This document shows positions 5,038 to 53,474 of a stretch of 64,000 nucleotides of DNA, piece after piece; the first letter of the stretch is position 1; the number at the start of each line of letters is the position of its first letter. The DNA lies in assembly GCA_951406725.2 (NCBI GenBank), contig OX597835.1, positions 20,708,001 to 20,772,000 on the forward strand. Direction: 5' to 3'. The DNA is from Octopus vulgaris. Taxonomy: Eukaryota. A program made the position numbers and the translations under genes. The notes beneath the pieces are model-generated. The model did no database searches, was not told where the DNA came from, and saw only the letters and a program-made list of their open reading frames with translations.

Positions 5038-5289
5038 AAAATAATAGTTATCGCCATACTAATATGGCATTCTTATAAAAATAAGAAAAAAAGCTGTCCG
5101 CTTATTAGCTCCATGAGGCCATCGCCTTAAGTTAGCTATTTGATACACAAACTGTTCGAAGGTTATATGGATACAGTTTGTGTATCAAATAGCTAACTTA
5201 AGGCGATGGCCTCATGGAGCTAATAAGCGGGCAGCTTTTTTCTTATTTTTATAAGAATGCCATATTAGTATGGCGATAACTATTATTTT
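5038..5289. repeat. Foldback inverted repeat (~118-bp arms, 17-nt loop) ending at (TA)n
   Basis: 5038-5155 is the near-perfect reverse complement of 5173-5289. Confidence 0.92.
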
Positions 5290-5669
5290 ATATATATATA
5301 TATATATATATATATATATATATATATATATATATATATGTGTGTGTGTGTGTAAGTTCGAATTCAGTTCCACTCCATGGTACATTCGGTTGACCAAGCG
5401 TGACGAAATCCATCATATATGTATATAATTACATGTGTGTGAAATTGTACTTAGGTGTATTGCCTGCAACCACATGAAAACCGGTCTTGGTGTGTTTACA
5501 TCCCTGCACTTTAGCGGTTCGATACAAAGAGATAAGTACAGGCTCAAAAGATTAAGTAATGGAGGTCAATTCATTAGACTGAAATCCTCAGGGCGGTGTC
5601 CCACCATGACCACCGTGTATTGACTGGAGTAAGTAAAATATAATGCACAGATATATGTGTGTGTATTTT

Positions 5670-6041
5670 ACTAGCTTCAGTCATTCGACTGTTGCCATGC
5701 TGGAGCACAATCTTGAAGAGCTTAGTCAAACATATCGGCCCAAGAACTTATGGCTTTCAAGTCTAGTTCATATTCTGTCGATTTCTTTTGCCGAAACACA
5801 CTAAGTTACGGGACATAAACACACCAGCACAGGTTGTCAAGAGGTGATGGGGGACACACATATATATATATATACATATATGTACGACATTCTTCTTTCA
5901 GTTTTCGTCTTCCAAATCCCCTCACAAGGCCTTGGTCAGTACGAGGCTACACAGAAAGACATTTGCCCAAGCTGCAATGCTCTGGGACTGAACGCAAAAC
6001 CACATCATTGAGGAGCGATTTTCTTACCACATTGCTACGCC
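5670..6041 (-). mobile_element. Diverged SINE family B copy (an inverted 3' fragment lies at ~5410-5635)
   Basis: Homologous to 26487-26925 (CAGTCATT...GCCATGCTGGAGCAC, CAAATCC.CTCACAAGGC). Confidence 0.7.
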
Positions 6042-6956
6042 TAATCGACACAAATTGGTGAAGATCAGAAAGCCATTGTCTTAGATATTTGAATGCCTGA
6101 ACACGAAAGAAGCAAGAAAAAAGTGAGGTCATTCCTTTGTTAACTAAAGAACATTAACAAAGAATATTAGGTAGGAATATACTATGAAGTATTGCTCATT
6201 ATTCTATTTATGTACGCATACACATGCAATATGTATGTGCATGAATATATATATATATATATATATATATATATATATATATATATATATGCATATATTA
6301 TATATATATATATATATATATATATGTATATATGTATATATATATATATATATATGCATATATATATATATATGCATATATATATATATATATATATATA
6401 TATATACATATACATATATGTATGTATATATGTATATATATATATATATATATTTATATATATGTATGTATATGTGTATGTATATATATATGTATATCTA
6501 TATATATGTATTCATGTATGTATATATATATATGTATATATATGTATGTATATATATATATATATACATATATATATATATATATAAATATTCATATAAA
6601 TATATATAAATATATATATATATAAATATTCATATACATATATGTATGTATATATATATATATATATATATATAAATATATATATATTCATATACATATA
6701 TGTATATATATTTTTTTCATATACATATGGGAATATGCTCATAAATTTCTTAAAGATTGCGTAACTTTCTTTTTCTGGAGATCAGTCTATTTCTAGTGAA
6801 ATTAGAAAAATTGCTGAGTTGATAGATAGCAGGTCATTGTTGCCTTTAGATTTGGGAATTGAAACAATTTGGTTTTATTTATGTGAGAAGGCTTGCGGCC
6901 GTATACTAATGTAGAAAGTTAGGTAGGCTGACTGATAAACAGGCAGGCAGGCAGGC

Positions 6957-7510
6957 AGATAGATAAAAAAGAAAGAGATAGATAGAAAGATAGATAGATA
7001 GATAGATAGATAGATAGATAGATAGATAGATAGATAGAAAGAAATAAGTAGAAAGAAAGAAATAGATAGATAAATAGATATATAGATAGATAGATACATA
7101 GATAGATAGATATATAGATAGATATATACATACATACATACATACATACATATATATATATATAGATAGATAGATAGATAGATAGATAGATAGATAGATA
7201 GATAGATAGATAGATAGATAGATAGATAGATAAATAGATAGATAAATAGAAAGAAATAGATAGAAAGAAATAGATAGATAGATAGATAGATAGATAGATA
7301 GATAGATAGATAGATAGATAGATAGATAGATAGATAGATAGATAGATAGATAGAAATAGATAGAAAGAAATAGATAGAAAGAAATAGATAGATAGATAGA
7401 TAGATAGAAATAGATAGATAGATAGATAGATAGATAGATAGATAGATAGATAGATAGATAGATAGATAAATAGATAGATAGATAGATAGATAGATAGATA
7501 GATAGATAGA
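6957..7510. repeat. (GATA)n microsatellite
   Basis: Direct reading. Confidence 0.97.
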
Positions 7511-49964: not shown

Positions 49965-50731
49965 GTGCGTGCTTGCGTGTGAGTGGATGTGTGTGTGTGT
50001 GAATGTGTATGTGTGTGCGTGTGTGAATGTGTGCGTGTGTGAATGTGTGCGTGTGTGAATGTGTGCGTGTGTGAATGCGTGCGCGTGTGAATGTGTGCGT
50101 GTGTGAATGTGTGCGTGTGTGGCTGTGTGCGTGTGTGAATGTGTGCGTGTGTGAATGTGTGCGTGTGTGGATGCGTGCGTGTGTGAATGTGTATGTGTGT
50201 GCGTGTGTGAATGTGTGCGTGTGTGGATGCGTGCGTGTGTGAATGTGTGCGTGTGTGAATGCGTGCGCGTGTGAATGTGTGCGTGTGTGAATGTGTGCGT
50301 GTGTGAATGTGTGCGTGTGTGAATGTGTGCGTGTGTGAATGCGTGCGTGTGTGGATGCGTGCGTGTGTGAATGTGTGCGTGTGTGAATGTGTGCGTGTGT
50401 GGATGGGTGCGTGTGTGAATGTGTGCGTGTGTGGCTGTGTGCGTGTGTGAATGTGCGCGTGTGTGAATGTGTGCGTGTGTGAATGTGTGCGTGTGTGAAT
50501 GTGTGCGTGTGTGAATGTGTGCGTGTGTGAATGTGTGCGTGTGTGAGTGTGTGCGTGTGTGAATGTGTGCGTGTGTGAATGTGCGCGTGTGTGAATGTGT
50601 GCGTGTGTGAATGTGTGCGTGTGTGAATGTGTGCGTGTGTGAATGTGTGCGTGTGTGGATGTGTGCGTGTGTGAATTTGTGTGTGTGTGAATGTGTGTGT
50701 GTGTGTGCGTGTGTGAATGTGTGCGTGTGTG
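49965..50731. repeat. Minisatellite, 14-bp unit GTGTGAATGTGTGC
   Basis: Direct reading. Confidence 0.96.
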
Positions 50732-51874
50732 TTCCGATGTGGATATGGAAGGTGACAGCTACTTTAAGATTCACAAGTGGTGAAATCGAATCGTGCCTTC
50801 ACACAGTTTCCATTTATGACATTGTTCTTATTTTCAAACGATCAATTACCAGATATATCTACATATATACACAAATCCTTGTATACACACCTATATACAT
50901 ATACAAGCAAATAAATTCATACACACACATACACACATACACACATATATATATACACAGGCACACACTCATATATATATACACATGCACACACACATAT
51001 ATATATACACATACACACACACATATATATACACATACACAGACATATATACACTTACACACACACACACACACACTTACACTTACACACAAACACACAC
51101 ACACACACATATATATATATATATATATATACGATCTTATACACGCGCGCACACACATACAGACACATGAATGCAGATACATATATATATATATATATAT
51201 ATATATAAGATCGTATATACACGTATATATATATATATAAGATCGTATATACAGTGTCAACTACTTACCCTTGCTCCCGAGGCAAAGCGACATTCACTCC
51301 ATCTATCACTGCTGCCCCCTTCCTGCTATTTGCAATCCATAACCGTTCGCATCCAATAAAATTCTGCTCTTTGAAAGTGTGTATCCAGAGCGTTAACAAT
51401 GCACAAGTAATCTATACCGTACATAGCATTTAGTGCACTTGACGTGGAGTGGAAGAGATGGAAACAAAAAAGACTAGGAAAATGGTAAGCAATAAAAGGA
51501 TAATAGCTGGAAGGATTAAAAAGGGCTTATAAAATTCTAGTGAAAAATTCTCTTCCGTAATACTTTACGGCAAAATAGCAAAACCCGATAACAGACGGCA
51601 TCGGAGAATTGTTTATTTCTTTAATAATGTCTTTGCTGTCATGGGAATATTGCAGATTCTAGGCTGTGCAAACGTGTAAACGAGCTCACGTATAGAGAGA
51701 TATACGTAGGCACACACGAGTGTGTGTGTGATTATACATACATACATATATATATATATATATATATATATACACACACAAGAGAAAAAAGAATATACAC
51801 TGCGTGTGTATTTATATATATATAAAATACATTTGTATACATATGTATATATATATATACATATGTATATATAT

Positions 51875-51933
51875 AACAAAAACTGTCTGATGAACGGCAA
51901 CGAGAAACTCAGGTCAGAGTAACAGATTTTGTT
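51875..51933 (+). ncRNA. Type I hammerhead ribozyme with an extended stem I
   Basis: AACAAAA-A-CUGU-CUGAUGA-ACG-GCAA-CGA-GAAA-CUC-AGGUCA-GAG-UA-ACAG-A-UUUUGUU. The whole ~85-bp insert sits within (TA)n. Confidence 0.75.
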
Positions 51934-53474
51934 GAATTTTCTGCTGCTTTAAATAAAGTATATATATATATATATATATATGTGTGTGTGTGTGTGTGTG
52001 TGTGTGTATACATACATATATATATATATATATATATATATATATATATATATATAACACACACACACAGATATATACAGAGAAAGAGATAAAGATAGAT
52101 AGATATACGCCGTTATATGTGTAGCCAAATCTGTACATGTCTATATGTGTACACGTATTCATCTCTGTATGAAGATATACAGAAAGCTCAATCGTTATAT
52201 AGTGGCTGACATGTTACATCCACTATACATATAGTAATGTATGTAAAGATATGTGTGTGTGTATACACACATACGTGTATGTGGCAGAGATGTGGGCTAT
52301 AAATTAGTGACCTTCCCTGTCAGGGATGGCCACTGATTATATTTGGGTAAGAACTGCAGAACAGCAGCTTGCTGCTGCTGCAATCACGCGCATGTGGAGC
52401 TCCGGCTGGCGTAGCTGAAGTCTTGTCTGATGTCCGTGGTACTCTGAAAACAATACTGGCGATATAACCAAAAGCATCTACGATAGGCATTATTAAATCT
52501 CAGAATGAGATTGAAACAGTAATCGCTCGATAATGTAAAGTATAGAAGCCATCTTAACATGGCTAACCACATAGGGGAGGGGGTGTTACTGTAGCTTTAT
52601 AGCCCCAGGAGATCGTCGTCTCCAGCTGGCTTTAGACACCATTTTAGTGCACTTGAAGTATTTGTAAAGGGATCGCTTCTATAATTTTCATCATCTACGA
52701 TATATATCTTAAAACTAAACGGTATATGTATGAATATATGCGTGTCTGTATTATGCAGGTATGCATGTATGTATGTATGTAGATAGATAAATAGATTTCT
52801 TTTTTTTTTCTTGGCCACGCAGGGCTGAACACAAAAGGGACAAAACACAAAGTAGAGCTTTTCTTTTTGGGAAGAAGGAAGAAAAATAAGATTGGTCGGA
52901 TTCCGGTCAAAAGGGAACGTGGAAAAAAAGTGACGATCAATAGGGATCAGATAGATATAGATAGATGTATATATATATGTGTGTGTGTGTTTGTGTGTGT
53001 GTTTAGTTGTGCGTGTGTGTGTGTCTAGTTGTGCGTGTTTTTGTGCGTATGTAGTTAAACATGATGCCATGGGATGAAAGAACGAATATCAACGACATTG
53101 CAAAATTTCCCAAACAGTAATTGCTATCATTGCTCTTGCGCTAAGAGAAATGCTAGACTTAATTTCTATCACTCTTCGGATACGTTCCTCCTGTGGATTG
53201 TATAAGTGGCGAGGGATCACGAGGAGAAATTTCAAGTAGAAATAAGAAGAAAGGAAAACGTTAAAATTGCAATCTTGCTGTGAAAATGCTGACAATAATT
53301 ACTTGTTATTAATTTTTTATGCAGTGTATGTGCGTGCATACGCATGCACCGTAATGACTCACTCAATATCAACTGAACCGTCATCAATGCGAACCTGTCT
53401 TACTAACACGGTGCCTGCACTTTGTCAGCTCTGTCTTCGCGAAAGATTGCATGTTTTCATCTATACAATAACAG

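Follow-up and report, generated by a model that had tools for sequence, protein, structure and literature searches.

A stretch of 64,000 nucleotides from the Octopus vulgaris genome (GenBank assembly GCA_951406725.2, contig OX597835.1, positions 20,708,001 to 20,772,000 of the forward strand; the window, at its full length, hereafter) contains five copies of short non-coding mobile elements, retrozymes without long terminal repeats (non-LTR retrozymes). Downstream of the hammerhead ribozyme these elements share a conserved, covarying RNA structure, and the domain that it forms is real and apparently undescribed, within a known class of elements. Genomic copies end at two fixed places in or just after the domain, and inverted insertions almost always have one end at each. 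We consider the domain as a candidate signal for the Penelope-like element (PLE) reverse transcriptase (RT).

A conserved RNA domain in octopus retrozymes

The window copies, used as DNA queries, retrieved both dispersed and tandem copies from this 2.8 Gb assembly, in which TA microsatellites are abundant. Tandem monomers measure 362 nt in family A, 356-358 nt in family B and 363 nt in family C, and a further family has units of about 360 nt. The five window copies fall in families A, B and C; model searches of genomic loci brought in three more families (D, E and F), along with several subfamilies, and the fold is common to them all. The units are short (within 170-400 nt), non-coding and arranged head to tail, a type I hammerhead (core, stem II and short helix III) was found by pattern in 6 of 6 families, and the predicted monomer fold, a rod with a branched head at -112 to -134 kcal/mol, is highly self-paired. 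Because these units match the non-LTR retrozymes of PMC7229834 and bioRxiv 10.64898/2026.07.22.740005 (both, like the other papers cited here, drawn on for the portions of text available), we assign them by sequence to that known class, for which PLEs were proposed as mobilisers in the same two papers. The hammerhead core of families A and B is the U3/A8 variant described for PLE-associated hammerheads (PMC4209133), and the Rfam hammerhead models give no score on the retrozyme hammerheads. No open reading frame (ORF) matching a PLE RT or endonuclease is present in the window, and the units themselves are only ~360 nt long. One sampled locus (L014:218-1360) has four tandem 360-nt family E units adjoining a family B copy.

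A covariance model trained on four window copies and searched over the window gave seven matches at 53-82 bits, four of them the training copies, with the next best at 16 and 13 bits. The 17-letter pattern CGAYG-N7-11-GRGCTAWWMAGC has 5,503 matches in the genome and 3 for its reversed control, and model R3 matched at E < 0.001 in 10 of 80 ten-kb stretches (20 flanking the window, the remainder spaced by hand), a rate which suggests that the insertions number in the tens of thousands. Metagenome contigs gave two pattern matches, both without P1 and at 10-13 bits, which were taken as chance, and viral contigs gave none. Family A sequence occurs in four runs guessed to be RNA, with loose ends near both copy-end sites, and these were not counted as evidence of transcription; no RNA record holding retrozyme sequence was listed. 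The window retrozymes are known here from DNA, and contigs cannot separate a circle from a tandem, so the circular form of metazoan retrozymes remains putative for them.

The fold was described from 14 representatives, in which four deep lineages are 47-66% identical to each other. In the predicted structures of the A and C monomers a long rod extends hammerhead helix I and is capped by the branched head; the same rod is predicted for the B monomer, whose head came out partly misfolded in the copy that was folded. From 5' to 3', the head comprises hairpin P1; P2 (AGCY/RGCT), a conserved internal loop, and P3 with an N-GRYG-N loop; an A-rich linker of 5-8 nt, present in 14 of 14 representatives; the long-range helix P4, whose strands lie ~70 nt apart and enclose hairpin P6 (the ‘GCCAT’ hairpin) and a single-stranded stretch; and hairpin P8 (TCTC/GAGA), followed by an AT-rich run. 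P2 is nearly invariant in sequence. Identity between lineages is 0.69 for P1-P3 and 0.65 for the hammerhead; the rod arms and the stretch from P4 to site 2 are at 0.51-0.52, compared with 0.47-0.49 after shuffling, and by this measure P1-P3 is the most constrained part of the element outside the ribozyme. In families C and E, and not in A, B or D, the P3 loop CGTCGATG is complementary to itself; a kissing-loop dimer was considered and rejected by eye on that account.

In P1-P3, 94% of the alignment cells are paired, and double changes occur in 6 of 15 pairs, compared with 2.2 in shuffles and at most one in slid registers. In P4, P6 and P8 together (11 rows) they occur in 8 of 18 pairs, a count reached by 36 of 500 shuffles, while the 27 cells involved were reached by none; P4 covaries at 5 of 8 positions. 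Since shuffles ignore relatedness, double changes from one Watson-Crick pair to another were also counted along individual branches of a tree, over 31 pairs. This gave 12-15 compensatory changes, where independent placement as the null gives 4.3 ± 1.8 (P about 5e-5), with 5-6 against 1.7 ± 1.1 for P1-P3 alone (P 0.009) and 5-6 against 2.2 ± 1.3 for P4 alone (P 0.04), one single-copy change being neutralised in each of the last two. Plain MAFFT with RNAalifold recovers P1, P2/P3 and P6 and misses P4 and P8, with the P4 5' strand misaligned; for the latter fault rows B3, D and D2 were left out of alignment A8, and they were kept in the script counts. Folding z-scores of single copies range from -0.5 to -3.8, so that some copies are weak when taken alone, and one P1 pair is broken in the arm at 22145.

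These counts bear on the idea that the shared fold is inherited homology without present function, with the apparent covariation being a product of relatedness or of template switches within hairpins. The families do share a single ancestor in one genome, and only about six independent compensatory events fall in P1-P3, as that idea would have it. We nevertheless regard it as very unlikely, given that the flanks have decayed to background identity and P1-P3 has not, that the tree-aware null is exceeded, and that the P4 strands covary at a distance of ~70 nt.

An earlier, sequence-only reading of the window had described part of this structure. Its hairpin 1 corresponds to P1 and is borne out in all five copies, and its claim that pairing is kept while sequence diverges agrees with the compensatory changes in P1 and P2/P3 (tree-aware P about 0.01). 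The outer stem, internal loop, inner stem and CGAYG loop are present in four copies; over the families the loop consensus is the wider N-G-R-Y-G-N and not strictly CGAYG. The GCCAT-N6-ATGGC hairpin exists at the three places proposed; it is not terminal, however, but lies inside P4, and the RNA runs on through P8. Four of the five copies said to share one architecture do so, whereas P1 is all that the fifth, at 22592-22609, possesses, an unrelated repeat truncating it at about 22612. The motif had been placed on the sense arms of the foldbacks, where it is found, but both arms of each foldback carry it. Just two hammerheads lie upstream of it in the window, at 22019-22051 (-) and 22502-22534 (+); those of families A and C are found in copies elsewhere in the genome. 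The proposed A(A/T)(A/T)(A/C)AGC element is partly spurious, as the GC of its AGC starts P4 in A and C and its AGC belongs to the linker in B and D. The earlier description therefore covered only the 5' part of a larger domain, and the elements were not recognised there as retrozymes. A comparison with Rfam, which it had proposed, returned no match at gathering score, ribozyme families included: the whole-window scan was swamped by miRNA matches on microsatellites, focused scans gave nothing real, and what remained in both were sub-threshold matches (miRNA-type on microsatellites and on the foldback, and chance matches).

Two copy-end sites and one end at each

The 3' ends of genomic copies, counted from the hammerhead cut, fall into two clusters. 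In family A, 16 of 26 lie at +178 and 10 of 26 at +233 to +239; in family B, 15 of 50 at +168 to +177 and 27 of 50 at +218 to +223; and in family C, 19 of 42 at +175 to +180 and 14 of 42 at +231 to +235. The first, site 1, is in the single-stranded part of the P4 loop and the second, site 2, comes after P8, while copy ends within P1-P3 form no cluster. Examination of 62 inverted insertions of families A, B and C found 50 assignable at both ends, all 50 with one end per site. By eye, the same held for 5 of the 5 assignable insertions of family D (8 examined) and for 17 of the 18 of family F (21 examined), which brings the total to 72 of 73, all three window foldbacks included. Three loci (L220:3687-3768, L276:1643-1728 and L229:7028-7120) hold a ~60-nt family B piece that stops at site 1 inside a repeated element, which we take to be Helitron-like from its 3' end (a hairpin, then CTAGT).

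Target-site duplications of ~10-14 bp were often seen where the flanks are not simple repeats, and many loci have none. At the 59 inner junctions, where the two arms meet, an overlap of at least 2 nt occurs in 27 (the expectation is about 18%, a rough estimate without control), one of 0-1 nt in 15 and a gap in 17. An inverted 5'-truncated copy, a tail on one side only, a short duplication and AT-rich targets are thus all found. The inverted copy, one-sided tail and short duplication are known PLE features (PMC3846280, PMC8557442), and the insertions with one site per arm carry what their sequence identifies as a Penelope-like tail signature.

The sequence-only reading had also raised a second, undescribed self-cleaving or ligating ribozyme. 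The internal loop and the GRYG loop are indeed conserved, and with no Rfam match such a ribozyme would have to be new. Against this, every monomer already has a hammerhead, the ends in families B and C are spread over 6-10 nt, none cluster inside P1-P3, and cleavage leaves the strict pairing of site 1 with site 2 unexplained. The ribozyme idea is therefore highly improbable in our estimate.

Copies and other features of the window

The copies and their parts are collected in Table 1. The family A copy retains no hammerhead, and the family C insertion has an 11-nt target-site duplication. A reading of ATGA..AA..GA near 22117 as a selenocysteine insertion sequence (SECIS) was rejected by eye, its helix II being unpaired. 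Elsewhere, sampled loci L112, L113 and L116 (central 108 nt) belong to a type I hammerhead family with a very long insert in helix II.

Table 1. Retrozyme copies, their structural parts and other features of the window
Feature	Position	Strand	Remarks
Family A inverted (head-to-head) retrozyme insertion in (TA)n	4978..5289	both arms	99% identical to L035 monomer
Family A left arm	4978-5155	-	ends at site 2; monomer positions 62-238
Family A right arm	5153-5289	+	ends at site 1; monomer positions 42-178
P8 hairpin (TCTC/GAGA), family A	5006..5018	-	in tail between site 1 and site 2
P1 hairpin, family A	5170..5186	+	
P2, internal loop and P3 with GATG loop, family A	5191..5221	+	
P4 5' strand, family A	5227..5235	+	partner strand on left arm only, 5022-5029 (-)
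P6 hairpin (GCCAT-N6-ATGGC), family A	5259..5274	+	in P4 loop, just before site 1
Frame with a match to NADH dehydrogenase subunit 1	13672-14034	+	PF00146, E 1e-33; likely a nuclear copy of mitochondrial DNA
Family B inverted insertion	21851..22311	both arms	left arm (-) ends at site 1 (21851), right arm (+) at site 2 (22311)
P1-P3 module, family B left arm	21899..21960	-	z -3.2; model match
Type I hammerhead, family B foldback	22019..22051	-	U3/A8 core, short palindromic helix III
Complete domain, family B right arm	22146..22301	+	P1 22146-22161; P2/P3 22165-22195; P4 22204-22210 with 22277-22283; P6 22236-22251; P8 22289-22301
Truncated family B-type copy	22476..22609	+	hammerhead 22502-22534, rod, P1 22593-22609, then unrelated repeat
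End of a different high-copy repeat	22612-22665		661 candidates; truncates the solo retrozyme copy after P1
Fourth foldback, unrelated to the motif	32793-33051		89% arm identity; hammerhead-like core at 32889; probably another PLE-type inverted insertion
Family C inverted insertion (locus L061)	33796..34121	both arms	left arm (-) ends at site 1 (33796), right arm (+) at site 2 (34121)
Domain, family C right arm	33969..34097	+	part of P6 region deleted; P1 33969-33988; P2/P3 33991-34023; P4 34029-34036 with 34072-34079; P8 34085-34097
Frames resembling retrotransposon ORF1	42472-43761	-	weak zinc-knuckle match (PF00098, E 0.003)
Solo 5'-truncated family B2 copy	52488..52672	-	ends at site 2; P1 52636-52650; P2/P3 52601-52631; P4 52586-52592 with 52516-52522; P6 52548-52563; P8 52498-52510

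A candidate recognition element for a Penelope-type reverse transcriptase

The earlier suggestion that the motif serves RT recognition or priming gains support because the domain brackets both places where genomic copies end; it stays an inference, as no autonomous partner with the motif was found among the loci sampled. In our assessment the fold is probably a cis element to which a Penelope-like RT/endonuclease binds so that reverse transcription begins at two fixed sites inside the RNA. A more specific version, which we put forward tentatively and hold to be possible but somewhat doubtful, is that this undescribed RNA domain docks a dimeric Penelope-type (telomerase-related) RT with one start site per subunit, each insertion being made of two cDNAs whose priming is from opposite strands. 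In the main reading, a multimeric or circular transcript would be bound at the domain by a protein dimer, and the endonuclease would make staggered nicks in the two strands of AT-rich DNA. From one nick an RT would then start at site 1, from the opposite nick a second RT would start at site 2, and joining of their cDNAs mid-element at short microhomologies would give a foldback with the tail on one arm only. P2 and the internal loop, nearly invariant, are the predicted sequence-specific contact, and P4 is the predicted scaffold that places the start sites.

The one-end-each rule is predicted by this two-start dimer model, whereas it does not follow in any obvious way from self-priming on an antisense template, by which PMC3846280 explains PLE inversions; two starts on sense RNA are the better fit to the present data. 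In the available text of PMC11167929, the Poseidon RT of Anolis nicks both strands of AT-rich DNA in vitro, uses two internal RNA start sites that delimit the tail, requires only RNA from +20 to +172 with the hammerhead cut at +26, and is predicted to be dimeric. In the retrozymes the domain sits at the corresponding position, with both sites enclosed by it.

A search for an autonomous element sharing the domain covered loci with GIY-YIG matches (30 + 9 + 20), Poseidon-type loci (30) and Neptune-type loci (30 + 14). The GIY-YIG search gave at least 150 matches (150 of 6,136 candidates scored), and the loci translated were of Neptune type, bar one host gene-like match. The Neptune RT motif has 3,244 matches, from which the 30 + 14 loci examined were taken, and the Poseidon RT motif has 119, an old family. 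Model matches near PLE loci at L165, L181, L185 and L390 were tried as partners and rejected as separate retrozyme insertions. Two of the PLEs met in this survey have features of their own. The young Neptune-type PLE in (TA)n at L177-L184 (e.g. L180:768-4468) has an intact 781-codon RT/GIY-YIG frame, an upstream 479-codon frame, and CCAAT/CRE-like repeats and a U3/A8 hammerhead in its pseudo-LTR (pLTR). The old Poseidon-type PLE at L341-L370 has, 3' of its ORF, a tRNA-like RNA polymerase III (pol III) head followed by a type I hammerhead and no domain, and this 3' region is possibly the source of a family resembling short interspersed elements (SINEs).

Several observations weigh against recognition by a PLE-type RT as set out above. 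Among the Neptune- and Poseidon-type loci sampled, a set without Naiad-type elements, no autonomous element with the domain turned up; in all three sets, GIY-YIG, Poseidon and Neptune, the models match only separate retrozyme insertions. The regions from hammerhead to end of the PLEs, where read, are short and different from the retrozyme domain, the young Neptune-type family with the intact frame included. The P values for covariation are optimistic because the helices were chosen from the same sequences and all come from one genome, with about four deep lineages. At one family F locus (L320) both ends apparently lie at site 2, and a short site 1 fragment follows. In families A, B, D and F the query fixed one end and left the other free; only C, whose query reached neither site, is unbiased. 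At 17 of 59 inner junctions there is a gap and no overlap. Finally, P1-P3 lies 60-120 nt upstream of site 1 and its part in initiation is suggested by position only; its binding role is the least supported step, since position and conservation are all that it has behind it.

In one rival, P1-P3 serves the RNA phase through a host protein (stability, ligation, localisation or control of the hammerhead) and only P4-P8 sets the start sites. P1-P3 is conserved (0.69) while the region around both sites is at background (0.51), it lies upstream of both sites, and no partner with P1-P3 was found among the sampled PLE loci; moreover, the available text of PMC7229834 argues that something besides self-pairing blocks the hammerhead in animal retrozyme circles. 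On the other side, the minimal Anolis template reaches ~90 nt upstream of its first start, which is the position of P2/P3 here (PMC11167929), and the spacing from P1-P3 to P4 is kept by the 5-8-nt linker in 14 of 14 representatives. We judge this rival unlikely, though the strongest of the four considered.

The near-invariance of P2 would also suit a sequence that acts as DNA, as an internal promoter or an endonuclease site in tandem arrays, with copy ends produced by cleavage and not by initiation. Families D and F have an A-box-like 11-mer at P2, the tail has been attributed to endonuclease resolution (PMC8557442), and tail-dependent DNA recognition in D. virilis is cited in PMC11167929. That P1, P2, P3 and the long-range P4 show compensatory changes speaks instead for pairing within a single strand, a B box is absent from all six monomers and a sense-strand A-box-like match from 4 of 6, and we consider action as DNA improbable. 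The lack of a B box likewise led us to reject a tRNA-derived SINE or other pol III element; ARAGORN made one tRNA call, at a lowered threshold and on the opposite strand, in 1 of 6 monomers.

Docking of a PLE-type RT can be set beside known systems. SINEs and their partner long interspersed elements (LINEs) share 3' stem-loops, and the R2 3' untranslated region (UTR) is similar in being a structured RNA signal for RT use in trans; there initiation is at the RNA 3' end, whereas internal initiation at two sites is proposed here. The metazoan non-LTR retrozymes (PMC7229834; bioRxiv 10.64898/2026.07.22.740005) resemble ours in their ~360-nt non-coding tandem units, type I hammerhead, high self-pairing, thousands of copies and proposed mobilisation by PLEs, and, the hammerhead apart, the available portions of these papers mention neither a conserved domain nor two fixed 3' ends, nor do they give a one-end-each rule. 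PLE pLTRs with a tail and an inverted 5' copy (PMC3846280, PMC8557442) share partial tandems, the head-to-head inverted 5'-truncated copy, a tail at one end only, the short target-site duplication, a preference for (TA)n and hammerheads including the U3/A8 core (PMC4209133), but the retrozymes have no ORF and a tail of 45-60 nt, compared with 30-40 in PLEs. The RNA cis region of the Anolis element (PAc; PMC11167929) has its two internal start sites on the downstream side of the hammerhead, with a stem-loop holding the first, and shares AT-rich targets and nicking of both strands; it differs in lying inside the ORF and, in the text available, no covarying conserved structure is reported for it, the two regions being compared by description. 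In the literature searched, supplements and structure figures apart, we found no account of a conserved domain at the tail in retrozymes or pLTRs. The link between a retrozyme domain and two-site initiation by PLEs is new and testable.

How a PLE RT chooses its RNA, how the inverted copy with its one-sided tail arises and which enzyme moves animal retrozymes are left open in the portions of PMC11167929, PMC8557442 and PMC7229834 available. The locus offers a candidate cis element whose secondary structure is defined, together with two mapped candidate start sites and a near-strict rule of one site per end, and thereby makes both the two-start dimer model and the mobilisation of retrozymes by PLEs directly testable. 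A compact RNA handle for an internally starting RT could also serve RNA-templated gene insertion. If the docking of a dimeric Penelope-type RT is true, the retrozyme families would amount to a natural map of covariation in the template-recognition element of PLEs, and counterparts would exist in the PLEs and retrozymes of other animals. As a handle for a Penelope-type RT, its likely role in the main reading, the domain would show how these retrozymes spread.

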